Below are positions 8,524 to 47,147 of a DNA stretch of 64,000 nucleotides, piece by piece; the stretch's first letter is position 1; every line of letters starts with the position of its first letter. A program made the translations under genes and the position numbers. The notes beneath the pieces were generated by a model that was given only the letters and a program-made list of their open reading frames with translations, ran no database searches and was not told the DNA's origin. Source of the DNA: Nemertoderma westbladi (Eukaryota > Animalia > Xenacoelomorpha); the NCBI GenBank assembly GCA_032718475.1, contig JAUCBJ010007673.1, positions 1-64,000 of the forward strand. Reading direction: 5' to 3'.

Positions 8524-8534
8524 ATAACAGTCAT
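8524..8534 (+). promoter_or_regulatory. BEL-1 non-canonical primer-binding site ATAACAGTCAT, complementary to LTR positions 7761-7771
   Basis: Abuts the LTR end, lacks the TGG of a tRNA PBS, and is the exact reverse complement of ATGACTGTTAT at 7761-7771 and 18490-18500. Confidence 0.75.
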
Positions 8535-8564
8535 TGACTTTATTGCAGTAAGCAATAAAGTTGA

Positions 8565-20475: not shown

Positions 20476-22401
20476 TATAGAATTATATTCCCTAAATGCC
20501 GTGGATTTTCAAAATTTTATTTTATTCGAATTAACTTTGTAAAGATTGCTTTGAGTTCTCATTAGTATTGGTTCTATCTATTGTGTATCTATCGGTCAAG
20601 TGGTTCAGTAGCTCAGTTGGTAGAGCGTTGGAAATTATATGTGTAGTAGGTATCGAGTTCGAATCCTAATAAGTGCGAATTATTTTTTGTGCAGAATTTC
20701 AACTCATTTAAATTAACCGCTACAAATTAATTGCATTTGTCTGTACCAATGAGACCGTAGTTATTTGATTGTAACCAATGTTGTGTAAGTTATATATTAG
20801 CTGGACCAATAAGCTATCTTTAAAACCTTGTTAGAACCTATAGAACAATCGAGAATTTTCTCGATTGATTGCGGCACAAATTTGGTATAAAAAGGTGCGA
20901 TTTCGTTCATTAATAAAATCTACTTTAGTTCACTTACTACTACTTTAGTATACATTATCTTATCAATATTCTGTCGTGCTTAGTTTATTCTCAGATTACA
21001 TTGTATTATAATTGTATCTTCTGTAATAAAGTCAGAATATTCTCTCAGCTTTTCTGTTTTACTATGGTTTCACTACGGTGAACAAACTCGGGGACAGGAT
21101 GGCCAGCTAGAGATCGGGCCGCAGCAATGAACGGGAACATCACGGGAATGTAGACGAGAGACAACCCGCAATACCATTTAGAGTTATTCGCCCATCGCCT
21201 GAAAGGTTAGACAGCGTTCGATCCTTGCTACCTAAGTGTAAGACCAAAAGATCAAAGGTAGACGTAGTGACACGCTGTAAGCCTAAAATTACATCATAGG
21301 GACTGTACTGTCTTGATTCAGGAAAAAACCGCAGTAGACCTTCATATTCCTACGGGAGGAGAGAGAGCAGATACTAGTACGCAGATAGGACGTAGGCACA
21401 CCGGTACAAGGCATACACATTGGTTAGGGTGCAGCAAACTGTACGCTTAACTCTTGCTAAGTACAGGTGTGTGTGCGACTATTTGCAGTACGACCGTGTC
21501 TATTACATCAGAACTTGTAGGCTAGGGGGTTGCTGTGTTTTCACCTGAATTGGGATTGTACCGTTCAGGCGGTAGGGCAGTTTACGCTAGGCGCAAATAA
21601 ATTGAGGCTATCAGGGATATACTAACATCTACCGTGTCCCCGCCAACGCCCTAATAGGAAGTTACCCGGACTACCTGGGTGACTAAAATTCTGGATAGGA
21701 GCCAGGATAGCTATTAGTACCCGTACGCCTACAGTAGTAAACTAACACATCTCTTCTTAGTATCAGGGACCTGGTACCTAAAATTGCCGAATTCTGGGCG
21801 TAGTATTAACCTTATGCCTGAATTTGAGTCCTGGAAATACGCAAGAGGGGAAGGAACCTTATCATTCGTGAGTATTAGACCTACAAGTTATAAAATTAGA
21901 ATATTCGTAAAATGCACACCGTACCCAGTAATTATATATGTGAAGGAGCAAAACTGCTTTGACCGTTCAGAATTAACACGCGCGCGTTAGAAATTATTTA
22001 CACCTCAAAATATATAAAATTAACTTTCGTCCTTACTGCACTTTGCTCGCTAGTTAGACATCTCCAAATATCTGCCTCTGTACCTAGCTAGCGTCTCTTT
22101 GCCCAACCATATAAATCACACCGCGGCAAAGTATACGAGCCCCTTAGTCCGTCAGTGAGTCAGCCTGATTTTAGGATTCGCTGCGCGGGATTTTGTTTTA
22201 TCGAAGTTTGTCTGCTCGTAGACTGTTTTCTGCCTCACCGGTTAAAAGAGATCGATACTGCAATATATTCGCTTACTTAGGGTTTACTGTTTTGGTGAGA
22301 AGGTCGGATTTATGATTTGATTTACAAACTTTACAGTAGGATATTGCAGGTATTGTTACCGTCTCTTCCGATAGTAGGAATAGGCGTATCTCTCCAATTT
22401 A
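20476..22401 (+). repeat. BEL-2 5' LTR (1926 bp), termini TATAG...ATTTA
   Basis: Direct repeat of 38361-41522 once the nested insertion is removed. TATA-like TATAAAAAG at about 20886. Confidence 0.95.
20602..20676 (+). ncRNA. tRNA-derived Pol III promoter-like cassette inside the BEL-2 LTR (second copy at 38487-38561); not a functional tRNA
   Basis: A box TAGCTCAGTTGG with D-arm GCTC/GAGC and B box GAGTTCGAATCC. Anticodon and acceptor stems are degenerate. Confidence 0.7.
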
Positions 22402-22412
22402 GTAGGAATATG
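22402..22412 (+). promoter_or_regulatory. BEL-2 non-canonical primer-binding site GTAGGAATATG, complementary to LTR positions 21343-21353
   Basis: Abuts the LTR end, has no TGG, and is the exact reverse complement of CATATTCCTAC at 21343-21353. Confidence 0.72.
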
Positions 22413-23211
22413 TTTTACTGAACTACGGTTCGGTAGGACTAAAGTTATTTGAAAATTCTGTATTTTGAGGTAAAAATTTGTATTTGATTAGCTAAGTGCT
22501 AATTTTTTGAAATAAAATTTGATTTGAACCGCGTGTAAAATATTTTTGGAATTGAATACCGGTGTTTAAAAAAGGGTTTAAATACCATATTGTACCGGTA
22601 CAAAATTTTCGTAAAGTAAAACCTAACTCTTTTGTTTTTTCAGGATTCAGAACTCATTTCTAGGCTGTAACGGGAGCAAGACCGTGTTTAGCAAGTTTGG
22701 GAGATAGATAACTCAACAACTTTGGTTGGGAAAATCGCGTTTCGTCCGCAACGTTAAAAACGGAAAGGTTCACGTCCGGTTTGTATCTGGGAATCTGTTT
22801 TTCTGGAGAATTATTGGAGTGGGTGAGTTTGAAAAGTTGCATAAATAAGTTAGGCATTACCGTATTAGTTAAAATTATTGTGGGTTCCACTGTCTCAAGT
22901 ATTTATGCATTCCGTACGATTTCTTTGTTCATTGCTGAATTAGTCCGTATTATTGTATTTAATTTACCTTTTGATAACGCATATCGTTATCCGATTTATT
23001 TGTTGTAAAATTGGCCGCTAGGCTAATTTTATTATATACTTATTCCGTGACATTTATTTGCTGTAAAATTGGCCGTTTAGGCTAATTTTATCCATCTGCT
23101 ATAAAATCGGCCGGTAGGCTAATTTTATATGACTGTAATTAGTACCGTTTTATACAAATACGGTAAACTCGATACTTTGACACTCACTTCACTTGACTTA
23201 CAACTACCGAA

Positions 23212-26200
23212 ATGAGTGACAAACAAGACTATACGAAGAATACACAAACCGACTATGACTCATGTGACGGAGATAAGTCAGCAGCGGAAGAACAACAGGG
23301 GAAGACTCGCGAGCCTACCGAACCTACACCGTGTGCGTCACCAGTACATCCAACGGGAGTACCGGATGCCGTAGTACGAGGCGACGGCAGGACCGAGGAC
23401 TTTCTAACTGTTCCGCAACCTAGATATAGGGAAACGGAAATGGTAAGTTCAGCAGGAAGCACAGAAAGTGTGGTTAGAAGCGTCGGTGGATACATGGCGC
23501 ATATAACCAGGAGTATTGGAGAAGGCCAACGCATATTAGATGGGTTGACCGCTCCGATGTCTCGATTCGAGTTCTACACCCTCCAGGTTAGAGTACAGAG
23601 TAAAGTATATAAGTCCGTAGATAATCTAGTTGGCCTACAAGATCTAGCTAGACAGAGACAGGACATGGATACTCAACTTAGAATCCTCGAGAAACTAATG
23701 ATCACTAGAGAGAAACTAATTCAGTTTAAGTCGACGATTAGACAGATACAACAGGAACAAGCGGACCAGTTGTTAGGTGAGTCAGTTTCGGACGAATTAT
23801 TACAACCCGAGGAAGAACAGGAACTGTACCGACTGGATGGACAATTGGAACACCTGACGGACCACTTACGCATGTGCGGCGAAGACGTCGGCGATTTGGA
23901 AACCGTGCCGGAATACACGAGGGAAACTTCATTTGCACAAATCGAATCGGCACCGGGAATACTAAATCAATCATTGGTAAGTATTCGTAGCGAAATATGC
24001 GAAGGAAGTATAGTCACGTCAGAAGTTGCTCGACAACAGCAGCAGTTCTACAGACAGCAACACGAGATGGAAGAACAAACTCAACTGCTAATGATACAAA
24101 CAGCAGTAGAGGAAGAGAAAATACGTGTTGCGAATGTAGCGAGAATCTCTCATCTGCAGGAACAAGCCGAACTCGAAGCGGCCGAAATGGAAAGGTTAGA
24201 GTTGGACATTGCCCAACAAGCGGCAGCGACCGAGTTAGCGCAACGAACGGCAACAGCCGAGTTAGAGCGACAAACGGCAGCGGCAGCGGCAGAGTTAGAG
24301 CGACAAACGGCTGCGGCAGAGTTAGAGCGACAAACGGCTGCGGCAGAGTTAGAGCGACAAAGATTAGTTTCGGAAGCCAGAGTCGAGATGAAGACACGGC
24401 AAATAAAAGCCCAACAAGCGATACGACAAGCAGAGTTCGAGGCGCAACAACAACAAACGGAACAACGAGAAAAGGAAGTTAAACTTCGTTTCGAACTTGA
24501 AAAAAGGGCGAGAGAATTAGCCGAAACCAAGGAAAATCTGGATCTTCTAGCCCGCGACCGATCGATGAGATCTCGTGACGGACATGATTTGGACCAGTTA
24601 GAGGTAAGACATCGCCAAATTCAGGAACGGAAGAAGGAAGGAAGCGTAGGAGCACCCAGACGGGAACGACAATTAATAAAAGACGTGTGTCAACGATTCC
24701 CACAGGTAACTCATATGTTTGCACCGGTTACGACTAAGGAACCTGTTTCGATTGCGGGTAGTAGTGATATTTCTCCTATCCATGGTGCGACGGAACACAG
24801 GTTTGTTATTCCGGACGAGTTTATACCGCCAAGAGCAGCGTCGTCGCCTATTCCGAGAGTCAAGGTAAGTAACCCACCGATTACAGATCGTAGTAGTTTA
24901 TTGACCGGACCTGCGCTACTGACGACAAAACAGGTGAGTCCACCTTTGACACCTAAACCCGTTACACATTACGCTTACCCAATGACGTTTCGACCTACAA
25001 GGCCAGCGGTTTCAAATGCTGTCATCCGACCACCGGTCCAGTTTACATCGCAATCTACGACTTCGAGGAAGACTTGTGAGCCTACCGAACAACGGAGAAC
25101 AGTGGATACGCGACCGTTTAACCAGTTCACATCGCAATCTACGACTTCGAGGAAGACTTGTGAGCCTACCGAACAACGGAGAACAGTGGATACGCGACCG
25201 TTTAACCAGTTCACATCGCAATCTACGACTTCGAGGAAGACTTGTGAGCCTACCGAACAACGGAGATCAGTGGACGATGTTCCGAAACGAGCCGTTAGAA
25301 TTCGAACGACGCAACGGACGCGAGCACGTCGACCACCATATCCAGATGATAGTAGTACTTCGAGCGAATCGGATTACCCGAAACGCGAGGTATTTAGAAC
25401 AGGGGCGGCCGATGAATATAAACGCGAGCGTTCAGACAACTCCTTTGCAGACAATCCTCCACAGAATACACCAACACAGAAGGCGTTACAACCAACGGAC
25501 GCAATTAGTACACAACAGTTCGCCGACATTCTGCGACCAGTTGTCAACAAGTTGGCTCAGATCGAGGAGCGTCTGGAGGAAGTTCAAACCGATAGTTCGA
25601 GGAACACCGAATTCGAACACAATAGACACCCGAAGGCACCACAAAGACCGGTACCTTCAAACCCCACATCGTATCAGGGAAAAGCGCCCAGAAGGGAGAA
25701 CATCAACCAGGTTACCAACCAAGGACGCGAAACTCTGAACGTTGCCGAGGAGATAGCGAAATTCGCAGCCAGACAAGGATTGCCGGTACAACAACCACCG
25801 AAGTTCTCCGGTAGCTCAAAACACTGGCATACCTTCGTAGACTATATCGAATCCCAGATCGCCGTGTGCGCCTTTACATCACGGGAGAAGTTCAATTACC
25901 TGCTCCAAACGTTGTCAGGAGAACCTAAACGTTTGGCGGAGACCTTCGTCGGTGTACCGGACGCTTTCGAACTAGCGTACGATCGTTTGACTTCGATATA
26001 CGGAGGTACAGTGAGTATGGCCAGGTCAGTAATAGAGGAACTCTGTAAGGGAGGGGCTATCACTAAACCCGTCGACTTACTAAAACTGGCTGACGAGATT
26101 AAGAACGCTATCACTACCTTAAGATCAATTGGACAACTTGATTACGGGAATACCCCTACAGTTCTATTAAAGATAATAGGACGACTCCACCATCGACTTC

Positions 26201-28151
26201 GTCGGGAGTGGAGGAAGGTCGAATACCAGCGAGAGGAGCGGGGAGGATTCTTAAAATTAGAAGATGTGTACCTTTTAATATCCAGGGAGGCGGTAGTAGA
26301 AACTCGATCTAACTATACCGACCAGCACATCGTGGCAGAAGGGATCACACTGCCATCCTCCAACCGACAAAAACCCCAGACAACATCCACAAAGACGGCC
26401 ACTTACGCCACACCGACGGAATCACGACAATTCTCAGACGGTAATAGAGTATCTGCGCCCATTGGGACGAAACAGACGAGACAGCAACTCAGCGCCGACT
26501 TCAACGGCTGCCAATACTGCGAACATCTAGGTAAGCGGTATATTGGTCACAAGTTACGAGGTTGTCGACAATTTCGCGAGTTGAACTCGGAAGAACGACG
26601 GCTGCAGATACGGCCACTGGACTCTTGTTGGCGGTGTACGCGACACGGACACGTCCGTAAGGATTGCCCAAATACCGACACTTGTCCATCCTGTGGACGC
26701 AACCACGACGGTCTGCTCCTCACAGACAGCCACACGCCGACGAAACGCTTCGCCAGGGAACACCCGGAAGCAGCAGCGAGATGTGATGCAGCCTACCGAA
26801 AACGAGAATCGAAAACGACTCCAACTTTCGTGACCCATATTGAGGATTGCTTCTCAGAACAATCCGGATCGTCGGACGAAGAATCAGAAAACGACGACGA
26901 ATATTCTAATGGAAACGAACAACCGTCAATCGCGCTCCTGACCACTGACCAACTGAAGGGATTCAGTGTAATCCCGATTAAGGTTACTGGCACAAAGGGG
27001 AGTAAGAGGATTTACGCGATTCTAGATTCAGCCTCATCTCACAGTTACGTGGATGAAAAGATAGCTGACGTCGTAACGGATCTCAGACAAGGTAAACACG
27101 TCAGTTATACAGTAAGTAGTATGCATGGCCAGCGTGCAATACCAGTGACACGAGTTAAGTTGGACTTAGACTCTCTTCTTCCAAAATCGCAACACAGCGA
27201 GAGGGAGAGATCTTTGTTACCCTTTAGAGATCTAACCTTTGCGGCCACGAAGGACTTTAGTAACCTACTAGGTCCAGTGCCGGAACAATCTCTGGAGGAC
27301 CGTAAGTATTTCAGACACCTTGGTGTACCCGAATGTCCTGTCAATTATAGATCGGTAGCAATGCTGATCGGGACGGACCAATTCAACCTACATCAGGTGT
27401 GGGAAACCAGACCGTCGGCAGTTGTAGCAGGAAACGCATACGCCTGCAGAACGCCGATAGGGTGGTATACTCGAGCGCCTGTGCGCACACTAGACGTAAG
27501 TGACGAGGAAGACGATGTACAGAGTACATGTAGTTTATTAACTACAAATTCAATTCATTCCTTTTCACACGACATGGACCATACTACACTACAGTCGACA
27601 AAACATGACAGACGTGTAACTAGTATGATAAGTCACAAGGAGCAGCTAACCCACAAGGTGAGTTTAGAACTTGGGGAGAAGACGAATCAGCTAGAGATTC
27701 CATCGACGACAGATGATAGGCTTGCGAGTCTACCTACCCCAATAACCTCAACAGTGCCCGTCGATATCGATGATGACGCGTTGAGAAATCATCAGTTGGA
27801 ACAAGCCGCCTTGGACAAAGAATTAACGGAGAAGACTATCAGGTGGTTAGAACAAGATACAGCTGAACCTGGTAGCTACGAACCTTGCATGTCGGAACAG
27901 GAGAAACAATCTCTAAAGATCATGGAAGATACTATCCGACAGACGGAGGACGGACATTACGAGGTGGGGATGTTATGGCGTAGCCAAAGTCCTAAACTTA
28001 TAAATAACTACCCACTGGCTTTAAGACGTCTACACTCAATACGACAACGTCTATTAAAGGACGAGAAAGCCCATCTGCAGTACAACACTCAGATGGAGAC
28101 GTATTTGACTGAAGGATACGCTATCCGAATGACTAACCCGGAGCGAGTACC
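23212..28151 (+). CDS. gag: BEL-2 Gag-protease part of a Gag-Pol polyprotein, interrupted at 28152 by an insertion
   Basis: DUF1759-like PKFSG...W..F...EKFNYL segment, zinc knuckles (CQYC..H..C, CWRC..GH..C, CPSCGRNH), protease ILDSAS and pre-RT segment GHYEVGMLW..NNYPLALRRL. Confidence 0.92.
25038..25275 (+). repeat. 84-bp in-frame tandem repeat (about 3 copies) in BEL-2 gag
   Basis: QFTSQSTTSRKTCEPTEQRRTVDTRPFN repeated. Confidence 0.9.
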
Positions 28152-29336
28152 TAAAGAGGTGAGGTCTCTATAGGGGTGCTCGGAAAAGGCGGCGGCGGAC
28201 TCGTGAGGGTCTGGGGGCACGTTAAATCTGGGTTTATAGTGCTAGGGAGATACTTAAGGCCCTCGTGTCTAACGAACCATGAATTGCCATGGTGCCGTGG
28301 TTCCGTCTAGTCGGCCTGTTGCCGTACTGCCAGTCCTGTACACAGTAGGGGTGGTGGCATGGCGTGATTTGTGGCTCATGTGGCGTGAACTATGTTTTGT
28401 ATGTGGGCGATCAGTGGCAGTTTGCTTGGGGCTTGGATGGTTCCATTGACCGTCAGCTGTTCCGTTTTTTTGATACTATATGTTATTGTCTCCATGTTCA
28501 GCTGATTGGTCTTTGGTGGCATTGGAAAAACCGTCGGGTCTTGAGCTTTCTGTTGCTGTGGGTACGTGAGTACACGTGATTGTATGTGTGGCCACTGCGA
28601 GTGGGTATGGGAACCCTTGCCAGTTGGACAAGACGCCGCTGGTATTAGTAGGACCATACTCTACTGCACCCCAGCATACTTTGTGCACACAAAGTTATTT
28701 TACCCTGTCGGTAAAATAAGGTACTCTCGACTCTTTTCGAGTTTCAGTCGATACAATTTTGTCCCTTCCGATTTTGTCTTTCCCGATTTTGACCTCGATT
28801 TTGTCTTACCCGATTATGTCCTCTGTGTGTGCATGGTATGTGTCAGATTTTGTGTTTACCGTAGTGTACTTGATTTCGTGAACATCTGTTGAGTACACGT
28901 GTACAGGACGGGTAAGTGGTTACTTGTTCCTAGCTTTCGAGTTAGTCAGTATTGTTGAGGAACGGTGTCCCCTCAATACTGCCGGCGAGGCAGGTGAAAA
29001 CGTGTCAATATTCCATGTTGGGTAGCGCAAGCCCGCTTGGGACAAGACCGTCGGTTAGGCCCAAGGGCGACCTTGGTGCTCGATCGCTATCGACTGGTCC
29101 ACCTGCCGGTTGACTCTTTGTTATACTTTGAGTTGGCTCAATGTACAGTCAGGCCACAGTAAGTTGACAGTAGCCGCTCATCTGGCTACACGTTCGACGA
29201 GCTGTGCCGGTGTGATCGGGGGACCGAAAACAGAACCCGGGAAGCATCGGGCCACCCTGCGGCCTGGTTTGGTTTGTCACCGGCCCCCAGGGTGGTGGAA
29301 AGGTGTCCGCCTCGTGGGTGCGCCTCGGGGAGGAGC
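28152..29336. mobile_element. Unclassified 1185-bp hairpin-rich insertion splitting BEL-2 gag-pol
   Basis: Flanked by CC on both sides. Its removal restores ERVPEGHKWTDQTYYLPHH in frame, paralleling BEL-3 ERVPEETPITERTYYLTNH. Confidence 0.85.
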
Positions 29337-32300
29337 CCAGAAGGACACAAGTGGACCGACCAGACATACTACCTGCCACATCACTATGTGAGACATCCCG
29401 ACAAACCAGATAAAGTACGCGTAGTCAATGACTGTGCGGCTCTGTTTGAGGGAATGTCCCTCAATAGTGAGTTGATGGATGGACCGAACATGAATAATTA
29501 TCTTATGGGGGTGATTATGCGCTTCCGTCAGCGTCAAGTAGCCTTTACTTGCGACGTTGAAGCGATGTTTCACCAAGTAAAAGCGTTAGAGCGAGACAGA
29601 GACAGTTTGCGGTTTCTCTGGTATCCGGAAGGGGACTTAAGTCTACCACCAGCGACTTACCAAATGCAAGTTCGCGTTTTCGGTGCCAGAGACAGCCCAA
29701 ATTGTACGATGTACGCCTTGAAGCAAGCCGCTAGAGATCAGAAACATCTGTATGACCCAGAGATAATTAGAATTGTAGAACGTGACTTTTACGTTGATGA
29801 CGGTTTACAAAGTTGCGACACAGTAGAACGTGCTACAATAGTAGCACATCAATTACGGGACTGCTTGGCGGGCGGAGGTTTTAACCTCACCAAATTCGCC
29901 TCAAACAGTGCCGAATTAGTTGACTCATTCGGAACTACTGAGCGTGGAGGAGGTGATATAGACCTAGAGTTCGAACCACTACCGACGACTAAGGTGTTGG
30001 GGCTCTTTTGGGACCCAAACACAGACAACTTTCGAGTGAAGGTGAGACTGGACAGTCAAGGGAACACGCTGACCAAGAGATCATGCTTGTCAAAATTGAG
30101 CCGATTGTTCGATCCGTTAGGATTCATCAGTCCAGTGATACTGCAAGCCCGCATTTATATGCGCAGTATATGGAAGGATGGACTAACATGGGACGAGCCG
30201 ATCTCATCAGACCAAGTGGACTTATGGAAGACCTGGGAGGCGGAATTGTCTTCGCTAGAGGATTATTTCATACCCAGGGTTTACTTTCCATTACAGAGTA
30301 CATTTCCTGACAACTTGGAACTACACTGTTTTTCTGACGCCAGTGACAACGGTTTTGGTGTGGCAGCGTATTTGCGCAGACAAGTAGAATCAGACGAGTT
30401 CGATGTTTCGCTCATTACTTCTAAGGCTAAGACCATGCCTACTAAGTATATGACGACACCACGAGCCGAGCTACAAGCCGCAACCCTGTCAACCACCATC
30501 GTGAACCTCATACAGACAGAACTACAGTCGAGTTTACAGATATTTTATTGGACTGACGCGACGTTAGTTTTATTTTACATAAACAACGACACTCTCGAAT
30601 TCAAGACATTCGTAGCTAACCGTCGCGCGGAAATTCTAGACCGTTCAATAAAAGAGGATTGGCGACATTGCCCCGGACCACAAAACCCAGCTGATATTGC
30701 GTCGCGAGGAATGATGCCTGAGGAATTCTGTAAACCGGAGAACAAAGAGTTTTGGCAACACGGACCCCAGTTCTTGCAGAAATCGACACAAGATTGGCCT
30801 CCGTTATACGACAACAAGTCCAACACTATTCCCAAGGACGCCGAAATCAAAAAACCAAAAAGGGGGAAGACAAAGAAAAAGACAACGGCGGCAAAACTCA
30901 AGAAAAAACCGAAGGCGAAATGGAAGGATATAACTTCAAAGGTCAAGAGAGGAAGACTTGCGAGCCTTTCTACACCAGACATATCGCCAGACGGTCAACC
31001 AGACACGTTACCAGACGGTCAACCAGACATGTTACTAGACAGCCAACCAGACATTTTGCCAGACATATCACAAAATGTTCCACCAGACGCTAGTAACACA
31101 CTGACATACAGTAAAGCCGCAGTTTCCCTATTGGAGCGGCCTTCTATTGACAAACAACCAGATACGTTACCAGACGTATCGCCAGACACATTACTAGACA
31201 GTCGACTAGACATTAGTAATGTATCGACTAACAATAAAGCCGCAGTTTCCCTATTGGAGCGGCCTTGTATTGACAAACTACCAATTTTGACACACTTGAG
31301 CAACCATAAGCATGGTGAAACCTCATGTATTACAGATGTGGGTAGTACCTACGCTAATGTAAATACAGGTGTTACTTTGCGCTCAAGAGACATACCGAAC
31401 TTACAACCTACGGTGAGACCTGGGATTAATGTCGGCAGGAAAATAAGTTTACCGAAACCTGCTGACCCCATAGAGTTCAAACCACCATTAACGATCGACT
31501 TACAAAGTACCGACAATCAAGGTAAGAAGACAAAGAAGGACAAATTACTTGTAGACCCGGACGGATCAACAGTCAACAAGGGAATACTTACCGGCGGACC
31601 CGTGGGCCCTTCTAGTAATTCAAAACCTTCCAAATTCTCCATTGACTTACCTGATGACGTCACAAATACTCATGTCGACCGTATTGTAAACCTAACAGAT
31701 TCTTGGTCAAACGCTTGCCGAAAATTAGCGTGGATTGTACGTTTTGTACAATACGTTAAAGGCAAACGTGACTTTACACGTCGACTTACATTGGCTGAGA
31801 TTGACAGGTGTGAGATTAAATTAATTCGCCATTACCAACTGCGATATTTCGCGCGCGAATTCACATCTATACATCAAGGTCAACCAATCAAGTCGTCACC
31901 GATACTGAGTTGGAGTCCGATTATTTACAATGGCTTAATTTGTCATAAATCTCGGCTTCAAAACATTGACTTTAACACAAACTTTAGGTACCCAATAATA
32001 ATACCGCAACACCACGAACTACAACGTGCAATGATACTGGACGCACATCTACATCTGAAACACGCTGGAAGACACCACTGTCTTTCCTACTTACGTACTA
32101 GATTTGTATTAATTAGACCCAGTAAAGCATTAAGTTCCGTGACACGTACGTGTATTATTTGTAAAAAGGTACATTCTAGAATAGGTACCCAAGAAATGAG
32201 TGAACTACCACAAGCACGACTTCAAGCATTCAGACCACCTTTTACAGAGACTGGAATTGATTGCTTTGGTCCCATACATACGAAACGTGGACGTATACTA

Positions 32301-33182
32301 GTAAAACGCTGGGGACTGATTTTCACATGTATGTCCAGTAGGGCAGTTCACATTGAACGTGTGATGGATCTTTCCACCAACGCGTTTATACTAGCACTGC
32401 GGCGATTTATCGCTAGACGCGGACTAGTAAAATGCTTGTACTCAGACCAAGGGACAAACTTTGTTGGTGCTCGGAATGAGATTGCTAGAGCCTTTAAGAA
32501 ATTAGATCATGATCAAATCTCGAACGAACTGCAACCTCACAAGATTGTTTGGAAGTTCAATCCTCCAGATAGTCCTTGGAGAGGCGGAGTCTGGGAGAGA
32601 TTGATTAGATCTATCAAAACGGCCATGGCAAAGGTCATTCCAGTAAACCACATATTAACAGACGACCAACTGACAACATTGTTTGTTGAAATCGAGGCAA
32701 TACTAAATACTAGACCAATAGTATTAGTACCCGATGACAAACAATCTCAGTTCGCTTTAACACCAGCACACCTGCTTATGCAGGCACCGACCACATTGAC
32801 GCCGATTTCCATTCCAATGGAAAGCGATAGCTACGGTAGAAAAGCGTGGAAAATCACGCAACTACTGGCTAACAAATTCTGGGAAATATGGCAAAACCAT
32901 TATTTGCCCTCTATTTCTGCCAGAACAAACTGGTACAATAACACCCGCGCATTAAAGCCGGGAGATCACGTGCTGTTGGCAGAAGTGAATCTAAAAAGAC
33001 GCTTCTGGATAACAGGTGTCATTTTAGCCACACATCCATCTATGGATGGAGTGACAAGAACTGTGACGGTACGGACAATTGACGGTCGTACAGTAGACAG
33101 ACCGACTCAACGTCTCGTACTTCTTGAAGAGACTCGTAACGAGTCTGGAGATTACAAATCTCCACCTAATACTAGTAAATAA
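29337..33182 (+). CDS. pol: BEL-2 Pol: reverse transcriptase, RNase H, integrase
   Basis: RT: KVRVVNDC, DVEAMFHQV, FGARDSP, FYVDD. RNase H: LHCFSDAS, PRAELQAA, WTDA, NPADIASRG. Integrase: H..H..CIIC, GIDCFGP, SDQGTNF, GGVWERLI, then a DUF5641-like tail. Confidence 0.95.
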   Translation, partial: PEGHKWTDQTYYLPHHYVRHPDKPDKVRVVNDCAALFEGMSLNSELMDGPNMNNYLMGVIMRFRQRQVAFTCDVEAMFHQVKALERDRDSLRFLWYPEGDLSLPPATYQMQVRVFGARDSPNCTMYALKQAARDQKHLYDPEIIRIVERDFYVDDGLQSCDTVERATIVAHQLRDCLAGGGFNLTKFASNSAELVDSFGTTERGGGDIDLEFEPLPTTKVLGLFWDPNTDNFRVKVRLDSQGNTLTKRSCLSKLSRLFDPLGFISPVILQARIYMRSIWKDGLTWDEPISSDQVDLWKTWEAELSSLEDYFIPRVYFPLQSTFPDNLELHCFSDASDNGFGVAAYLRRQVESDEFDVSLITSKAKTMPTKYMTTPRAELQAATLSTTIVNLIQTELQSSLQIFYWTDATLVLFYINNDTLEFKTFVANRRAEILDRSIKEDWRHCPGPQNPADIASRGMMPEEFCKPENKEFWQHGPQFLQKSTQDWPPLYDNKSNTIPKDAEIKKPKRGKTKKKTTAAKLKKKPKAKWKDITSKVKRGRLASLSTPDISPDGQPDTLPDGQPDMLLDSQPDILPDISQNVPPDASNTLTYSKAAVSLLERPSIDKQPDTLPDVSPDTLLDSRLDISNVSTNNKAAVSLLERPCIDKLPILTHLSNHKHGETSCITDVGSTYANVNTGVTLRSRDIPNLQPTVRPGINVGRKISLPKPADPIEFKPPLTIDLQSTDNQGKKTKKDKLLVDPDGSTVNKGILTGGPVGPSSNSKPSKFSIDLPDDVTNTHVDRIVNLTDSWSNACRKLAWIVRFVQYVKGKRDFTRRLTLAEIDRCEIKLIRHYQLRYFAREFTSIHQGQPIKSSPILSWSPIIYNGLICHKSRLQNIDFNTNFRYPIIIPQHHELQRAMILDAHLHLKHAGRHHCLSYLRTRFVLIRPSKALSSVTRTCIICKKVHSRIGTQEMSELPQARLQAFRPPFTETGIDCFGPIHTKRGRILVKRWGLIFTCMSSRAVHIERVMDLSTNAFILALRRFIARRGLVKCLYSDQGTNFVGARNEIARAFKKLDHDQISNELQPHKIVWKFNPPDSPWRGGVWERLIRSIKTAMAKVIPVNHILTDDQLTTLFVEIEAILNTRPIVLVPDDKQSQFALTPAHLLMQAPTTLTPISIPMESDSYGRKAWKITQLLANKFWEIWQNHYLPSISARTNWYNNTRALKPGDHVLLAEVNLKRRFWITGVILATHPSMDGVTRTVTVRTIDGRTVDRPTQRLVLLEETRNESGDYKSPPNTSK

Positions 33183-33841
33183 TTAGGAGTTTAAAAATAG
33201 ATTTCCACGTACCTGTACACCGTAGTAAGGACAGCGGTAGAATTCCATTGTCTTTATATGTGAACATTGAGGGTAGTACCCTTATGTGTCACATAGGAGC
33301 GGGATTTGTAGGTATAAGAAATGGAATTCTACTTGGAACTCACAATATTGAGACATTTTCGAAATTTTAGACAATCCATTTGGATTTGAAAAATTTTTAA
33401 AATTTTCTCCAGTGAATAGATTTCAGGGTACAGTCGGGTGGAACTTAAAATTAGAGAAACAAGAGAGGAAGACTTGCGAGCCTTTCTTAAAATTTTAATT
33501 AAATTTTACACGGTCTTGTTTCAATAAGTTACGTCAAAATAGACTCCCCTATATTTATTACTAATTCTTGACTGCTTATTTTCTGATAATAGTTTGGGAT
33601 CAAAAAGTGAGTATTTTAGACTCACAGCCAGTTTAGCCCAAAATTCGTTTTTATTTCGGCAAAAAATTTTAGATAAGAAGCAGCGTGTCATTAAAGAAAC
33701 CCTAGATCTTAGGCTATGGGTAGGAGGTTAGAGCGTTGTCGAGCCCAAAGGGCAGACGAAACTCTCACGTCTCCTCACAACTAACTACAAACTCTGTTGT
33801 ATTCCCTCTAGTAGTAATGATTATGTAACTACACCCTAATT

Positions 33842-36800
33842 ATGGAGAAAGGGATACAAGGAGAGCCGAGATGGGGATATGATATCCAAGAGGAGGCAGC
33901 AGCGCCATTCGAAAGATTTGGAGCCAAGGATTACACTATATTTGGTATAAAAGAATTATCGGAAAGTACAGCGAAACTCGCGAGAACTAAATATGACTCG
34001 AATGTATTAAAGAGAAGGCAAAACGCATTGAACGAAAGAATCGAAAGTTTGCGCCAAACCTTCAATGAACTTTACCCGTACGATGCTTTGTGTGACACGG
34101 GAGACATTAGCGAAGACCCCGATACTGAAATTAGTCGTTTGTATCATACCATGCAATACCTAAAGGCGCATGAACCTATGCCCGCGGTACGCGATGAATT
34201 CGATGGAATGCATCTTTACAGACGAACTCGAGGGGACGATAGAGAAACCAAGGAAGCATTTTCAGTTTATAAACTTTATTATCAATGCGGTTCTTGTATG
34301 CGCGAACAACGAAATGCGATTCCGATGCGTTTGAATAAGGAAAATCCCGAACCGATATTGGCGAGGTGTTCGAATCATCAACAACTACGCTACCAGGAAG
34401 GAGGGTATCCTTTATCGAATCCATATCATTCATTTGCTATGACCGGACCAAAGGCGGGAGAAACTGTCATTTACCCACCTAAGGTTGTTGAACCCGATGT
34501 ATTTGAACTTACGCTGGACGAGGCGAATCAGTCAACCCGCGAAAAGAAAGAAGCTCTTAGCCTATACAGAGCCTACAAGGCTTTCGAGAAAGGTGAGATG
34601 GAAGAATGGGGTGGAAGACTCGCGAGCCTACCTTGCCATTGGACGTCACACGATCAAACTTCAGCTAAGGAGATGACACCGGAAGTTTTCGAGAGCATAA
34701 ACTTTGCTCAAAACGTTATTCAGAGACTACAGATTGCATCCCCGGAGAGGCCAAGAGAAATGCAACCGTATAGTACTTCAACTACGAAACCATTGAGTAC
34801 GACACTCAATTTCCCTATTAGTATACCAGTCCGACAGGATACGACGTACGAAATACCCATCGTGGATCATCCAGAAATCATTTCAAACTTGGAGTTTCTT
34901 CCTGCAGTTGTTTTCAGCGATATGAGTAAGATATATGATTTACGTAGACATATTACTCAAAAGGTCGTGAACAACGTTCCACCTCATATCCAAGATTTTA
35001 AGGAACTGGATAGAGCTGGTGCCGACATAGCTCCGAGTAATCTGAAAGGATATCTAACCAAGACGATTCGTTTATGGATTGGAACCGGAACCTTCGAGTC
35101 GGATACGGATATTGCCGCAGATTGGCGAGGTAAGGTTATTCGTTTCGATGAGGATAAGGATATAGAGAAGATTTGGCAACCTTCGGAAGAATTGTTGGAT
35201 GAATGGACTAGGACGTTTAGATCGTTTCAGGAAAACGGTTATATGTTTTACGATAACGAGGGCGGCAGTCATCAGCAGAGTTTGACTTCTAAGACTATAC
35301 AGATTAGAGCGGCGGACGGAGTCCTGCACGTTTTCAGTAGACAGAGGAGCGACAAACGAATGCCGATACCTCCAGCGAATACAAAGCGACACCATCTTAT
35401 CACCGATATAGTAAAGAAGATGGACCAAGCTTGTAATATTGACGCTAGAATGCTACCGAAGATGGTAAGAAACATGATTTTAGATAAAACTGTTGTAAAG
35501 GTTGGATCAGGAGTAAGGGAGGATCTAATTAGCGACTTCGCCGGCATGACGGACAGCGATGACCGACTACCGACACCATACGTCGACACTCGACCTCTTA
35601 TTCTGTGGTCTATAGAACAGGGATATTTTCGTGAGTATAATACTCAGAAGACTGGCACTGGATACATTTCCTACCTGTTATTCAATTGGGATTATAAGGA
35701 AGGTAAAAGGAACAAGTATATTGAAACTTATGGAGAAGGTGATACTCCAGATATGAGTGAGTTTGAATCACAGCTTAAATGGAGAGGATGCGTGTATTGG
35801 GCTATTACGTCACCTCCAAGAGCGGTCTTACAATATTATTTAGCGATAGAGTCGTCAGTGAATGTTTGCCTAATCGCCGACATTGTGTCTCGGACTCTCA
35901 AAAGACATCCACTTTGTCTCGGAGAAGATCATACGTTCTACATGGAAGGGAGAATTCGTACCGACGTGTTTAGACGATTCCTTGAACCCTTCTACAACTC
36001 CGACGCTCAGTGTAATGCCTTTACTCGAGCAGGATTTAGTATATTTCGAGACGTGTATCTTCGCTGTGCGGGATCTCTTATCGAAAGACCATCTATGTTT
36101 ACATTGTTACCCTATGAAGGAGAACGTATCGTGGAGATTATGGATGAATCACGGCAGACGCGCGCGCCTATCGGTCACCTTGGTGATGAATTCGAAGTAA
36201 CTACTACGATCGCCGACGATCCTTTAGAGGAACTTCTTGAGATTGAAAGGAACCTCCCGAAGAAATCTCAGACGGAGATTCGACAACTTGAAGCAACAGA
36301 TGCTATAGTTTGCCTACAACCTTCAGAAACCTACCAACCCATAGACCCAGATGATTACGATTATAGTATGGGAGGAAGCGCTCGACCGATTGGAGATCTT
36401 ATATACGAACGAGTGTGGTACCCTGCCAATACGATGTGTAATAAATGTGGCGTCGCTGGACATCATATGGCAAAGTGCAGTGGAAAGCACATTACTACGA
36501 CTCAGCTAATCTGTGGATGGTGTGGGGATCAAGGGTCTCATACCTTTTATACTTGCTGGAGATTTATGGCTCAATGTACTTACTGCAATATAAAGGGACA
36601 TCGAGCATCTGAATGCCAACTGAGAGACATACCTTATGAACACGAATCTGTAAAACTCGTGAGGAAGTTATTTGATGAGTGGGAAGATTTGGCCGACGAA
36701 CATGTATCGGCACAAAGAAGACGGTTTCCGATGAGAGCGCATCTCGGATTTTGGGCGGTAAATCCTCAAACGATGATGTCGGAAGGATATATCTCCGCTA

Positions 36801-37567
36801 TGCCCCAATATGACGAACTTATCGAGGTTGTCGATATTTTGCCCCACTACAGCGGATTCCGAGTGGTGCGCGAGTATCTGTTACAAATTCACCCGGATAA
36901 CAAAAACACGTGGAATTTTCAGAAAGTCGTTAATCGGATTACGTATGGTGAATTCGATCGTTTCCGAACTGAAAAGCGGAACAAAGGAGCTTGGTTAACC
37001 GTCGCATGGGCGTACCGAGCCGCGTTTTACCACAAACGTATACGAGCGAGCGTATTCGAGGAAGAAGAGGTCCTAGAGGCGACAAATATACCAGCCACTC
37101 CGGTTGCGCCGTCTGCACGTCACCCTCGAGAGGACGGACAGGGTAGGATCATACGGGTCCAGAAAGTGGGCCAACAATTGAAGAAAATTATTAATGTAGA
37201 AGAACGCAAGGGAGTTGAGCCGACTATTCGAGTTACTCGGGATACGGTATCACTTCCAAGAGAACCGGTAGGAGGATCGGGACATACACCAGCTGATCAA
37301 CAGGGGGCGCAAGCTACTCTTGGGTCTGCGTCGTCCACTCCTCGCGCGTTCCCAGACGTTCTACCAACTGTAGCGACAACTGATCGGTCACGAGGAATTG
37401 GTCGAGGTTTTGGGATGCCAAATAGACGAATTTGCGAGGAAATAGTTGCACCGTCTCTCAACGTCCCAAGTAAACCAGTGACTCGCCCCATTAGTCCCAT
37501 ATCGCGAGCAAAGTCACCTGTGCGCAGTTTTCGAGGACGCGGCAGGGCTCGATCTACTAAGCGATAA
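33842..37567 (+). CDS. BEL-2 ORF3 (1241 aa): putative DEDDy (WRN/EXD/mut-7-like) 3'-5' exonuclease with an N-terminal CCCH-like finger and three C-terminal CCHC knuckles
   Basis: ExoI FYDNEG, ExoII KVGSGVREDL, PYVDTR, ExoIII-like QYYLAIE. Knuckles CNKCGVAGHHMAKC, CGWCGDQGSHTFYTC, CTYCNIKGHRASEC. Same motifs in BEL-3 ORF3. Confidence 0.8.
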   Translation: MEKGIQGEPRWGYDIQEEAAAPFERFGAKDYTIFGIKELSESTAKLARTKYDSNVLKRRQNALNERIESLRQTFNELYPYDALCDTGDISEDPDTEISRLYHTMQYLKAHEPMPAVRDEFDGMHLYRRTRGDDRETKEAFSVYKLYYQCGSCMREQRNAIPMRLNKENPEPILARCSNHQQLRYQEGGYPLSNPYHSFAMTGPKAGETVIYPPKVVEPDVFELTLDEANQSTREKKEALSLYRAYKAFEKGEMEEWGGRLASLPCHWTSHDQTSAKEMTPEVFESINFAQNVIQRLQIASPERPREMQPYSTSTTKPLSTTLNFPISIPVRQDTTYEIPIVDHPEIISNLEFLPAVVFSDMSKIYDLRRHITQKVVNNVPPHIQDFKELDRAGADIAPSNLKGYLTKTIRLWIGTGTFESDTDIAADWRGKVIRFDEDKDIEKIWQPSEELLDEWTRTFRSFQENGYMFYDNEGGSHQQSLTSKTIQIRAADGVLHVFSRQRSDKRMPIPPANTKRHHLITDIVKKMDQACNIDARMLPKMVRNMILDKTVVKVGSGVREDLISDFAGMTDSDDRLPTPYVDTRPLILWSIEQGYFREYNTQKTGTGYISYLLFNWDYKEGKRNKYIETYGEGDTPDMSEFESQLKWRGCVYWAITSPPRAVLQYYLAIESSVNVCLIADIVSRTLKRHPLCLGEDHTFYMEGRIRTDVFRRFLEPFYNSDAQCNAFTRAGFSIFRDVYLRCAGSLIERPSMFTLLPYEGERIVEIMDESRQTRAPIGHLGDEFEVTTTIADDPLEELLEIERNLPKKSQTEIRQLEATDAIVCLQPSETYQPIDPDDYDYSMGGSARPIGDLIYERVWYPANTMCNKCGVAGHHMAKCSGKHITTTQLICGWCGDQGSHTFYTCWRFMAQCTYCNIKGHRASECQLRDIPYEHESVKLVRKLFDEWEDLADEHVSAQRRRFPMRAHLGFWAVNPQTMMSEGYISAMPQYDELIEVVDILPHYSGFRVVREYLLQIHPDNKNTWNFQKVVNRITYGEFDRFRTEKRNKGAWLTVAWAYRAAFYHKRIRASVFEEEEVLEATNIPATPVAPSARHPREDGQGRIIRVQKVGQQLKKIINVEERKGVEPTIRVTRDTVSLPREPVGGSGHTPADQQGAQATLGSASSTPRAFPDVLPTVATTDRSRGIGRGFGMPNRRICEEIVAPSLNVPSKPVTRPISPISRAKSPVRSFRGRGRARSTKR

Positions 37568-37609
37568 AAGGGAGGGCAAGGGTGGACGGAAGACTCGTGG
37601 GCCTTTCTT

Positions 37610-38140
37610 ATGATTTGTGATTTATTTTGAATTATATGTTTTATATTTAGAAAATTTAGTAAACTTATATTTTATATTTGTGCTTATTTCGAACTTATGC
37701 AATTTGTATTGTTCCGAATTTATGAAATTTAGAAATAAGAACTCATATTTAGTAAACTTATATTTAGTAAGAATTTATATTTTATATTTACGTGATTATT
37801 TCGAACTTATGCAATTTATATTATTCTGAACTTATGCAATTTATATTGTTCCGAATATTATGCAATTTATATCTTATAAGCAGTATTTGTATTTACAGTG
37901 AAATAGAAAGTTTTATAGATAGAAAATTTGTGCCCAGAAAGACTCATATTTGTAATTATTCCAAACTTATGCAATCTACATTTAGGTACGAAAGTATTTG
38001 TAATTACTTGAATTTATGCAATATTTGAGATGCAATAGTAGATGGAAGACTCGCGAGCCTTTCTTATTGTTTTCATTTATTTGTATTTGTAATTGTTTGA
38101 ATTTATGCAATATCTGAGATGCAATAGATTTATATTGGTG
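37610..38140 (+). repeat. AT-rich degenerate tandem repeats (GAACTTATGCAATTTATATT) in the BEL-2 3' UTR
   Basis: The motif recurs many times between the ORF3 stop and the PPT. Confidence 0.7.
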
Positions 38141-38353
38141 AATTTAATTTAGATTTATATTGTACTTACTTCGTAAAGCCTTAACTACGTAAAGTTTGAA
38201 TTTGTAATTATTTTTGTATCGAATCATTACGTAAAAGGGAAGTATTGTTTGAAACTTAATTGTAAATATGTAAGTACGCCCTAAGTATTTTATAGTTTGA
38301 TTGATTATTGGTGAAAACCGTATATTTTATGCACGATAATATCCTGTTTTCAT

Positions 38354-38360
38354 GGAGCGG
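38354..38360 (+). promoter_or_regulatory. BEL-2 polypurine tract GGAGCGG
   Basis: Immediately precedes the 3' LTR; same motif as in BEL-1 and BEL-3. Confidence 0.85.
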
Positions 38361-41300
38361 TATAGAATTATATTCCCTAAATGCCGTGGATTTTCAAAAT
38401 TTTATTTTATTCGAATTAACTTTGTAAAGATTGCTTTGAGTTCTCATTAGTATTGGTTCTATCTATTGTGTATCTATCGGTCAAGTGGTTCAGTAGCTCA
38501 GTTGGTAGAGCGTTGGAAATTATATGTGTAGTAGGTATCGAGTTCGAATCCTAATAAGTGCGAATTATTTTTTGTGCAGAATTTCAACTCATTTAAATTA
38601 ACCGCTACAAATTAATTGCATTTGTCTGTACCAATGAGACCGTAGTTATTTGATTGTAACCAATGTTGTGTAAGTTATATATTAGCTGGACCAATAAGCT
38701 ATCTTTAAAACCTTGTTAGAACCTATAGAACAATCGAGAATTTTCTCGATTGATTGCGGCACAAATTTGGTATAAAAAGGTGCGATTTCGTTCATTAATA
38801 AAATCTACTTTAGTTCACTTACTACTACTTTAGTATACATTATCTTATCAATATTCTGTCGTGCTTAGTTTATTCTCAGATTACATTGTATTATAATTGT
38901 ATCTTCTGTAATAAAGTCAGAATATTCTCTCAGCTTTTCTGTTTTACTATGGTTTCACTACGGTGAACAAACTCGGGGACAGGATGGCCAGCTAGAGATC
39001 GGGCCGCAGCAATGAACGGGAACATCACGGGAATGTAGACGAGAGACAACCCGCAATACCATTTAGAGTTATTCGCCCATCGCCTGAAAGGTTAGACAGC
39101 GTTCGATCCTTGCTACCTAAGTGTAAGACCAAAAGATCAAAGGTAGACGTAGTGACACGCTGCAAGCCTAAAATTACATCATAGGGACTGTGGGGCGAGC
39201 CACGAAGTGAGTGAGCCTTAGCGTAGTGGTACCATTAATCAACCTGTCGTTCTGTCGTTCTGTCGTTCTGTCGTTCTGTCGTTCTGTCGTGTTCAATTTT
39301 AAACGTTAATAACTCAGCCAATCTTTGATGAAATCTATCCAAACTTGGTACACATGTTGTTTGGCAAAAGTTTAGAAATTTTCCAAGTAGAATTTCCGTG
39401 TGGCCTTCGAGAAGCTAAGATAATAGCAGTTAATTAGTTAATTAAGTTGATTACGGTGAAAACACAATTTTCAACCTGCCTTTTAAAGGAAATTAATTGT
39501 TTTACAGTATAAGATTTAAATAATTATAATTAAAAATTATACAGATGTAATCCACATACGCCATTCTATTATAGTTTTTAATTAGTTCAAGTGATTTGCT
39601 TTAATAATTGTGTCTTTAATTGATCTAAAGTAATTAAAACGGCATAAAAAATGGATTCTCATTAAATACTGATCATTTATTGGCCAACTTGCAAGTTGGC
39701 TGGTACATAGATGGGGGATGTGTGTGTAAGGGAGCCAGTTGCTGGGAATGCCAGTGGAGGGGGGTTGTATGTAACTAGCCACACGGCTGCCAGCTAGACC
39801 TAACGAGATTGAAACCTGCATTCCCTACCTCCTATTACACTATAGAGTCTGTGTTCTTTAGTCTCAGGTAATAGACAGATCTCATTTAATGATTGTCAGT
39901 CAATAAGATTACCACTGCAGAAGGCTTATATCCAAAATTGTTTATTTCTCAAAATATTATGCTTATTATTTTTTGATGGGATTTCTGTGTATTTTAATTG
40001 TCTAAGTTTTCAGAGGCATTAACAGTATATTAAATAAATTATTTGAATATCATTCATTACTGCATCGACTGTATTTAGTACTGCGTAGATTATATTCCTA
40101 TAAACCACCTGGCTTCGCATATTGAACGTGCGATTGGAAATAAGTTCGTGCTACCTTCCGTGGGTGGTAGATGTCGCGGTTATGTATTGGTGGGTGGGAA
40201 GGGTGGGGGGGGGGGGGGGGTGGGGTGGGGTGGGGTGGGGTGGGGGTGCAGATTTAAAGGGCTGAACACGTACTGTCCCTCTTTTTTTGATTGATTGGCG
40301 GTGTGGTTAAATTTCTAAATTTTACTAATTTATAAAGTTAAATACTGATTTTGTGATACAGTCGCTCGATATTAATTTGTATCTCATAACTGGGCCTCGT
40401 GTTGCGCGAAGGCCCCACGAACGTGTACTGTCTTGATTCAGGAAAACCCACAGTAGACCTTCACATTCCTACGGGAGGGAGAGAGAGCAGATACTAGTAC
40501 GCAGATAGGACGTAGGCACACCGGTACAAGGCATACACATTGGTTAGGGTGCAGCAAACTGTACGCTTAACTCTTGCTAAGTACAGGTGTGTGTGCGACT
40601 ATTTGCAGTACGACCGTGTCTATTACATCAGAACTTGTAGGCTAGGGGGGTTGCTGTGTTTTCACCTGAATTGGGATTGTACCGTTCAGGCGGTAGGGCA
40701 GTTTACGCTAGGCGCAAATAAATTGAGGCTATCAGGGATATACTAACATCTACCGTGTCCCCGCCAACGCCCTAATAGGAAGTTACCCGGACTACCTGGG
40801 TGACTAAAATTCTGGATAGGAGCCAGGATAGCTATTAGTACCCGTACGCCTACAGTAGTAAACTAACACATCTCTTCTTAGTATCAGGGACCTGGTACCT
40901 AAAATTGCCGAATTCTGGGCGTAGTATTAACCTTATGCCTGAATTTGAGTCCTGGAAATACGCAAGAGGGGAAGGAACCTTATCATTCGTGAGTATTAGA
41001 CCTACAAGTTATAAAATTAGAATATTCGTAAAATGCACACCGTACCCAGTAATTATATATGTGAAGGAGCAAAACTGCTTTGACCGTTCAGAATTAACAC
41101 GCGCGCGTTAGAAATTATTTACACCTCAAAATATATAAAATTAACTTTCGTCCTTACTGCACTTTGCTCGCTAGTTAGACATCTCCAAATATCTGCCTCT
41201 GTACCTAGCTAGCGTCTCTTTGCCCAACCATATAAATCACACCGCGGCAAAGTATACGAGCCCCTTAGTCCGTCAGTGAGTCAGCCTGATTTTAGGATTC

Positions 41301-41522
41301 GCTGCGCGGGATTTTGTTTTATCGAAGTTTGTCTGCTCGTAGACTGTTTTCTGCCTCACCGGTTAAAAGAGATCGATACTGCAATATATTCGCTTACTTA
41401 GGGTTTACTGTTTTGGTGAGAAGGTCGGATTTATGATTTGATTTACAAACTTTACAGTAGGATATTGCAGGTATTGTTACCGTCTCTTCCGATAGTAGGA
41501 ATAGGCGTATCTCTCCAATTTA
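38361..41522 (+). repeat. BEL-2 3' LTR, interrupted by a 1.2-kb insertion
   Basis: 38361-39191 plus 40427-41522 reproduce the 5' LTR. Confidence 0.95.
39192..40423 (+). mobile_element. Helentron-associated/DINE-1-like non-autonomous element B, inserted in the BEL-2 3' LTR
   Basis: Absent from the 5' LTR. Same termini as element A (GGGGCGAGCCACGAAG ... GCGCGAAGGCCCCACGAACG), a (CTGTCGTT)n microsatellite, a 3' hairpin, and TGT on both sides. Confidence 0.75.
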
Positions 41523-47140: not shown

Positions 47141-47147
47141 CTGCAGT

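Follow-up and report, generated by a model that had tools for sequence, protein, structure and literature searches.

Bel/Pao retrotransposons of Nemertoderma westbladi with primer binding sites complementary to their own long terminal repeats: likely self-priming and a probable exonuclease-like third open reading frame

Introduction

Retrotransposons of the Bel/Pao group are described as tRNA primed, with a replication that is "poorly understood," and the International Committee on Taxonomy of Viruses (ICTV) description of the Belpaoviridae gives an 18-nt tRNA-Arg/Gly primer binding site (PBS), long terminal repeats (LTRs) of 0.2 to 1.2 kb, and genomes of 4.2 to 10 kb (PMC8742986). Here, we analyze Bel/Pao elements in a 64,000-nt stretch of DNA from the xenacoelomorph Nemertoderma westbladi (assembly GCA_032718475.1, contig JAUCBJ010007673.1, positions 1 to 64,000 of the forward strand), referred to as the window. 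Two of these elements, A and B, carry a PBS that is complementary to a short segment of their own LTR, and B also bears an intact third open reading frame (ORF3) downstream of pol that encodes a probable exonuclease-like protein. An initial annotation of the window had joined these features into one proposal, in which an LTR-derived RNA anneals to the PBS and the ORF3 protein trims it back to the duplex to make the primer.

Two described systems are closest to these elements. In Tf1, the RNA's initial 11 bases anneal to the PBS and RNase H cleaves behind base 11 (PMC7175516), and priming needs a three-duplex fold (PMC10085805). A DEDDy-type ORF3 in LTR elements is likewise already in print: the rotifer elements Juno and Vesta encode an RNase D-like ORF3 after pol, for which an as yet untested role in RNA 3′-end processing was suggested, and the terms PBS, priming, and tRNA do not occur in the main text of that paper (PMC5408684). 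In the literature that we searched, which did not cover Repbase reports and most subscription papers, neither self-priming nor priming at a splice junction nor an exonuclease ORF is described for Bel/Pao elements.

Results

The PBSs of elements A and B match their own LTRs

The features of the priming regions are as follows.

7262..8523, + strand: 5′ LTR of A, with TG..CA ends and a 5-bp target site duplication (TSD), 99.2% identical to 17989-19252
7761..7771, + strand: 11-mer in the LTR of A, putative self-primer, complementary to the PBS of A
8524..8534, + strand: non-tRNA PBS of A
8534..8564, + strand: predicted 13-bp hairpin from the last PBS base of A (z −4.9)
20476..22401, + strand: 5′ LTR of B, 1,926 nt, with TA..TA termini; TSD at 20471-20475 and 41523-41527
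20603..20689, + strand: degenerate tRNA-like stretch in the LTR of B, with an A box, a B box, and a T run
21343..21353, + strand: 11-mer in the LTR of B, putative self-primer, complementary to the PBS of B
22402..22412, + strand: non-tRNA PBS of B
22412..22439, + strand: predicted 12-bp hairpin from the last PBS base of B (z −4.1)
40462-40472: copy of the 11-mer in the 3′ LTR of B, with one substitution, at 40464
48195-48185, − strand: position in element C equivalent to the 11-mer of A, with 2/11 bases different

The PBS of A is the exact reverse complement of an 11-mer that lies 499 nt into its LTR, and the PBS of B stands in the same relation to an 11-mer 867 nt into its own. Both matches span exactly 11 nt and begin at offset 0 after the LTR, a geometry that places the 3′ end of the primer at the LTR edge. 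The initial annotation had reported 11-nt self-complementarity in both families, positions of about 500 and 870 nt into the LTR, and plausible promoter motifs upstream of the 11-mers (CCAAT near 7578 and an Inr-like TCAGT near 7640 in A, and a motif near 20886 in B), and all three observations hold. The PBS complement was present in 18 of 20,000 shuffled LTRs of A and 7 of 20,000 of B, corresponding to a chance of ~1e-3 each. Among 11-mers of the window that lie outside the LTRs, 124 of 61,463 had a complement in the LTR of A and 42 of 58,901 had one in that of B. Neither PBS starts with TGG or resembles the 18-nt tRNA-Arg/Gly site of the ICTV description, and in neither element did a spliced junction give a match exceeding the contiguous one. 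The match in B is qualified by its 3′ LTR, where the copy of the 11-mer is not intact.

The two LTRs of B differ by four substitutions, three one-base indels, and an insertion point at ~21304. All of these differences fall at 21278-21358 and 21525, where they cluster around the 11-mer and around the facing arm of a long hairpin predicted there; over the rest of the 1.9 kb, the two copies are identical.

The tRNA-like stretch is copied in both LTRs of B, has degenerate stems, and is called by neither ARAGORN nor Rfam. It was considered as a primer and rejected, as its 3′ end has no complementarity to the PBS; it is possibly a Pol III promoter or an insulator. Cer7-type Bel elements of Caenorhabditis elegans are reported in older work to encode their own tRNA-like primer.

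Self-complementary PBSs recur in relatives that lack an ORF3 match

Relatives were found with pol alignment, which yielded 110 loci: 76 from metagenomes (among the best 80 of at least 587 confirmed stretches) and 34 from a genome collection. Viral contigs returned no Bel/Pao loci. The genome collection is prokaryotic, and its 34 Bel/Pao pol loci (L077 to L110) most likely stem from DNA of animal hosts that entered the bins. None of the 110 loci had an ORF3 match at an E value of 0.01, and many of them are too short to exclude ORF3.

A repeat whose 3′ end was defined was present in 27 loci, and 22 were kept once five whose repeats are not LTR ends (L051, L073, L084, L094, and L096) had been dropped from this set. 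Nine of the 22 have a TGG PBS without a self-match. In nine others, the PBS matches a GT-AG splice junction of the element's own LTR over 11 to 15 nt, with 0/300 PBS shuffles doing so in each case; the splice-site patterns behind this count were defined after the sequences had been inspected. The PBS of L077 matches its own LTR contiguously, like those of A and B (1/300 shuffles), and the remaining three (L015, L033, and L087) received no call, with L087 matching at 10/11 positions by eye. Swapping PBSs and LTRs among the non-TGG elements gave 0/210 matches of at least 11 nt.

A boundary-free scan of 22 further loci added three matches (null, 1/440), each located directly after a CA, although the search pattern made no demand for one. 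Seventeen hand-picked regions, which partly overlap the boundary-free set, were searched more loosely and without a null and gave four more matches of 11 to 13 nt and one of 10 nt. The junction primer of L002 was spotted by eye and then checked. A self-complementary PBS was thus found in 18 loci, none of which has an ORF3 match: L077 and 17 with a splice-junction primer (L002, L024, L027, L030, L031, L037, L041, L048, L067, L068, L073, L082, L083, L091, L093, L094, and L107), including the close kin L037/L041, L082/L093, and L024/L027. The initial annotation had proposed to test whether ORF3 tracks a self-complementary PBS across families and had named self-complementary families without ORF3 in advance as evidence against its proposal. 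These 18 loci are of that kind, so the exonuclease link is unsupported, and the proposal of ORF3 as the enzyme that makes the primer fails on this comparison as a general mechanism.

The architecture of the relatives bears on both the primer and the absence of ORF3. The LTR introns of the junction loci are of the GT-AG type and span 76 to 1,022 nt where measured. In L082 and L093, differences at the end of exon 1 and in the PBS compensate each other. Exon 1 supplies just 3 to 9 matched nt of the primer. Of 14 loci, five have a TATA-like motif 120 to 156 nt before the donor, eight have none, and L094 has one only at −224; in 13 of the 14, the acceptor is followed 8 to 99 nt later by a poly(A) hexamer. 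Taken together, these three features indicate that the primer is likely internal and that R, the repeated part of the LTR transcript, likely extends past it, which supports the suggestion in the initial annotation that the primer need not be the 5′ end of the RNA. The distance from the pol stop to the 3′ LTR is 39 to 388 nt in the 14 measured junction loci, compared to 5.2 kb in B and 6.1 kb in C. In 12 of these 14 loci, pol reaches its C terminus; it is truncated in L093 and L107, so the gap is less telling there. In L077, the gap is 764 nt and its longest open frame is 142 codons.

The exact complementarity in A and B makes their tRNA-free priming likely as judged from sequence, and self-priming in some form is very probable. 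The freedom from host tRNA that the initial annotation had proposed is supported, by the self-match in A and B and by relatives whose PBSs track their own LTRs.

The window families are sisters

A tree of reverse transcriptase (RT) and RNase H (41 rows and 446 columns, with unlabelled loci left out) places B and C as sisters with support of 99.9/100, and C is a relative of A. Since the window families are sister lineages, the co-occurrence of ORF3 and a self-complementary PBS is one event, not the two separate ones that the initial annotation had counted. B and C group with L001, L002, L019, and L047 at 95.1/77. In L001, the LTR lies ~110 nt past pol, leaving no room for ORF3, and no PBS was seen, and L002 has a junction primer and a 62-nt gap. 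Its union with the main junction clade (99.4/99) has support of only 81.3/74, and L018, an element with a TGG site, branches just outside. The branching order suggests that self-priming is likely, though not certainly, older than ORF3.

ORF3 probably encodes an exonuclease-like protein under purifying selection

The ORF3 features of B and C are the following.

33842..37567, + strand: ORF3 of B, intact, 1,241 amino acids (aa), with a predicted DEDD-type exonuclease domain and three zinc knuckles
35249, 35498, and 35837, + strand: acidic motifs of B ORF3
36437-36616, + strand: zinc knuckles of B ORF3
49163..52216, − strand: main frame of ORF3 of C, ~30% identical to B ORF3, with the same three acidic motifs and knuckles

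The B and C proteins have DxE, KxGS..DL, and YxxxE motifs and the three knuckles in common. The ExoI DxE and ExoII D motifs are conserved in both, and the ExoIII motif, placed by eye, is YxxxE, not YxxxD. HHalign against nine RNase D/PolA exonuclease domains (of 10 matches) aligned the ExoII region in register with a score of 29.5 (E value of 0.001, probability of 22%), compared to at most 17.2 in 40 column shuffles and 16.4 for the reversed alignment. PF01612 clusters made up 24/30 and 25/30 of the Atlas matches, with a score of 0.93; by the Atlas's own account, shuffled proteins reach 0.9 in 4 to 10 of 100 cases. Two AlphaFold models of ORF3 were of low confidence (predicted local distance difference test score of 30 to 31).

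Sequence searches for ORF3 gave no match in Pfam, no phmmer match among 1.84 billion representatives, and nothing relevant in two PDB searches. No homologues emerged from two word-based searches, one with 4,583 candidates and the other with a two-sequence profile and longer proteins, and none of 63 long Bel/Pao proteins carried a fused ORF3. The sole exonuclease-family match in PHROGs was weak (E value of 0.24), as were three 72-aa viral matches (E value of ~2e-4).

ORF3 is under purifying selection. In the knuckle part, C and A differ with a synonymous rate (dS) of 0.88 and a nonsynonymous rate (dN) of 0.05 over 175 codons (dN/dS of ~0.06), and in the exonuclease end, C and D differ with synonymous and nonsynonymous proportions (pS and pN) of 0.78 and 0.14 over 122 codons. 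The motifs and remote-homology tools indicate that ORF3 probably contains a DEDD-type 3′-5′ exonuclease domain along with three zinc knuckles; its exonuclease activity is predicted only, and the E instead of D in the last acidic motif weighs against it. The zinc-knuckle exonuclease of the initial annotation thus keeps its knuckles, its DxE and ExoII motifs, and its remote homology and is weakened by the YxxxE motif and by the lack of Pfam, phmmer, and PDB matches. Its statement that both families combine the PBS with the exonuclease ORF holds within a single copy for B alone, the only one with both features visible, since the exonuclease part is lost from A.

Hairpin at the PBS and RNA folding

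A perfect hairpin starts at the last PBS base, with 13 bp in A and 12 bp in B. None of 15 self-priming relatives has it, the longest equivalent stem abutting their PBSs being 6 bp, and a 12-bp stem was reached at 2 of 3,000 random window positions. In structural terms, the hairpin could stack on the 5′ end of the primer or hold the PBS open.

When the folded sequence begins with the 11-mer or close to it, the primer-PBS helix is predicted with a probability of ~0.9 for both A and B, and it is still predicted with up to 10 nt (A) or 30 nt (B) of upstream sequence. Forcing the helix costs merely 3 to 4 kcal/mol out of 200 to 360; because of this small margin, folding cannot place the start site, and long-range folding was rejected for that purpose as nondiscriminating. 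Spliced folds of relatives contained the helix in 6/6 cases with a minimal exon 1 and in 4/6 with an exon 1 of 60 to 150 nt, compared to 0/6 unspliced folds. The 272 nt located 3′ of the 11-mer fold strongly in B (z −4.4), with a z of +1.3 for the equivalent stretch of A. About 240 structured nt, through which an exonuclease entering from the poly(A) end would need to work, separate the 11-mer of B from the next AATAAA, and the nearest hexamer in A is ~650 nt away. In B, the stretch that follows the primer is predicted to form a short duplex with the end of U5, and the sequence 3′ of the PBS pairs with itself in both elements.

The LTRs of A and C are 73 to 81% identical from ~200 nt past the 11-mer (7960-8523) and 45 to 61% identical before that point (from 7460), a pattern that suggests a conserved RNA element in R/U5. 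This step was rejected as a mark of the U3/R border, as it lies ~200 nt past the 11-mer and not at it.

Anatomy of the elements in the window

Self-comparison and the ORF listing revealed four related Bel/Pao pieces, A to D. The gag and pol sequences are assigned to Bel/Pao by Pfam signature, by the order Gag-protease-RT-RNase H-integrase, and by RT clustering, and LTRs, a polypurine tract (PPT), and a 5-bp TSD of the Bel/Pao type are all present. The remaining features are listed below.

10738..14946, + strand: gag-protease ORF of A, with RT and most of pol deleted
16849..17484, + strand: ORF3 remnant of A, zinc-knuckle part only
17989..19252, + strand: 3′ LTR of A, with a PPT before it
23212..28173, + strand: gag (DUF1759, zinc knuckles), protease, and start of RT of B
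28164..29350: interruption of gag-pol of B by ~1.2 kb of unrelated DNA at the RT start, edges approximate
29350..33182, + strand: pol of B, with RT, RNase H/Peptidase_A17, integrase, and DUF5641
38361..41522, + strand: 3′ LTR of B, with a 1.2-kb insertion at ~39189-40423
45853..47147, − strand: element D, a degraded ORF3 fragment of a related subfamily
47463..48638, − strand: 3′ LTR of C, an element related to A

Element A (7262-19252) is a young copy, with eight substitutions and one indel between its LTRs, that has lost RT along with the exonuclease part of ORF3. Element B (20476-41522) is ~18.6 kb long after its two insertions are subtracted. Element C lies on the minus strand from 47463 to beyond the window end, so its PBS is outside the window; ORF3 is present. 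The internal regions of C and A are 85 to 90% identical, and the pol identity of the two families is only ~44%.

The DNA that interrupts RT in B (28164-29350) has no match elsewhere in the window and contains short reverse-strand frames. The LTR ends of B (20476, 22401, 38361, and 41522) are TA..TA, not TG..CA, and those of L091 are noncanonical as well. The insertion at 39189-40423 starts almost like a repeat at ~19978 (19978-20010), into the downstream part of which B itself is inserted; the two probably represent a family of small nonautonomous elements. Positions 1-3786 of the window hold a tandem array with a period of ~98 bp and ~96% identity.

Discussion

We favor self-priming in cis with an RNase H cut, drawn by analogy with Tf1, and regard this form of the mechanism as having an even chance of being correct. 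The 11-mer copy in the 5′ LTR would fold back onto the PBS within the genomic RNA, and RNase H would cut just 3′ of the duplex, leaving a 3′-OH at the LTR edge. Strong-stop DNA would span U5 and the rest of R and jump to the 3′ R, which would require a poly(A) site downstream of the 11-mer. The ancestral primer would have been made by splicing of an LTR intron, with the A/B lineage, like L077, being intronless. ORF3 is probably a later-captured accessory; it may be an RNA-binding protein with a 3′-5′ exonuclease fold that selection maintains for a different role, the most plausible candidates being the trimming of RNA and interference with silencing by small RNAs.

Several points weigh against this account. 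Cis pairing and RNase H cutting are borrowed from an unrelated Gypsy group. The predicted helix is lost with at least 20 nt (A) or at least 50 nt (B) of upstream sequence, and it does not form in folds of L077 or in those of L082 and L093 with a longer exon 1. The persistence of the intron in relatives is awkward, as priming in cis would need the 3′ copy to remain unspliced. Support for the node uniting all self-primers is low (81.3/74), which leaves room for more than one origin. The absence of the A/B hairpin from all 15 relatives implies that the priming region changed in the A/B lineage, and the 110 loci offer no ORF3-bearing relative for comparison.

Self-priming could instead operate in trans without ORF3: either the genomic 3′ end or a short transcript of the LTR, in relatives a spliced one, would anneal to the PBS, and RNase H or nucleases of the host would cut or trim it, leaving the genomic 5′ end intact. 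We consider this possible, if somewhat doubtful. The poly(A) hexamers close behind the acceptor in 13/14 relatives would delimit a short spliced RNA, a 5′ copy left unspliced would account for retention of the intron, and the hairpin in A and B could hold the site open; against this, cis pairing is predicted in 4/6 spliced relatives even with a 60- to 150-nt exon 1, and the hexamers of A and B lie far from the 11-mer, behind ~240 structured nt in B. It is improbable that ORF3 took over in the A/B lineage only, a captured exonuclease trimming annealed LTR RNA to the 11-bp duplex after the intron was lost. Such a role would suit the PF01612-type look of ORF3 in Atlas and HHalign, its purifying selection, and its presence alongside long LTRs, a primer that lacks an intron, and a hairpin next to the PBS. 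That co-occurrence is a single phylogenetic event, however, and the self-primer of L077 is intronless too, in a locus that has a 764-nt gap and lacks an ORF3 match; in addition, the strong structure 3′ of the B 11-mer should stall a duplex-stopped exonuclease early, and the nuclease activity is only predicted, with E for D in the last catalytic motif. The full history in which a splice-built self-priming clade gave rise to an A/B lineage that lost the intron, gained the hairpin, and captured a primer-maturing exonuclease, free of tRNA throughout, is judged equally improbable. Priming by a host RNA (a tRNA fragment or another small RNA), with the LTR 11-mer merely a structural partner of the PBS, is the least likely of all: half-tRNA priming is described in Copia groups (PMC6317226), yet the PBSs here vary by family and track their own LTR (0/210 on swapping), even across a splice junction.

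If correct, self-priming in Bel/Pao elements would add another origin to those of tRNA-free priming, a splice-dependent primer would tie replication to host splicing, and the PBS would escape control by 3′ tRNA fragments. Bel/Pao elements without a PBS call gain an annotation rule. Bel/Pao elements would also join the retroelements that carry DEDD-type genes, for which primer synthesis is an unlikely general function.

The gag (DUF1759), Pao peptidase/RNase H, integrase, DUF5641, PPT, and 5-bp TSD agree with the Belpaoviridae description, from which B differs in its 11-nt self-matching PBS, 1.9-kb LTRs, and ~18.6-kb length (PMC8742986). With Tf1, Tf2, Tj1, and the Tf1/sushi group, A and B share a non-tRNA PBS that matches 11 nt of their own LTR (PMC7175516, PMC4600332, and PMC10085805). 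Tf1/sushi elements are Ty3/Gypsy chromoviruses, whereas the pol of A and B is of the Bel/Pao and not the chromovirus type. As described, Tf1 uses the initial 11 nt of its RNA as the primer, whereas that of the relatives spans a splice junction, and the "pretzel" of Tf1 includes a duplex with the LTR, whereas in A and B the stretch 3′ of the PBS is predicted to form its own hairpin. Self-primers are also predicted for plant TAR Copia elements (Houba and Osr-1) and Tcn1; A and B qualify under the rule given there, at least 10 nt complementary to the 5′ LTR located 0 to 5 nt after it, and the description, of Copia and Gypsy plant lineages, includes neither a splice junction nor an exonuclease (PMC6317226). 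Juno and Vesta resemble B and C, by description only, in having an exonuclease-like ORF after pol with an altered acidic motif; theirs is DEED in rotifer clades, and here a Bel/Pao ORF of >1,000 aa has DEDE and three knuckles (PMC5408684). Specific to A/B are an intronless primer, very long LTRs, ORF3, and the 12- to 13-bp hairpin abutting the PBS.

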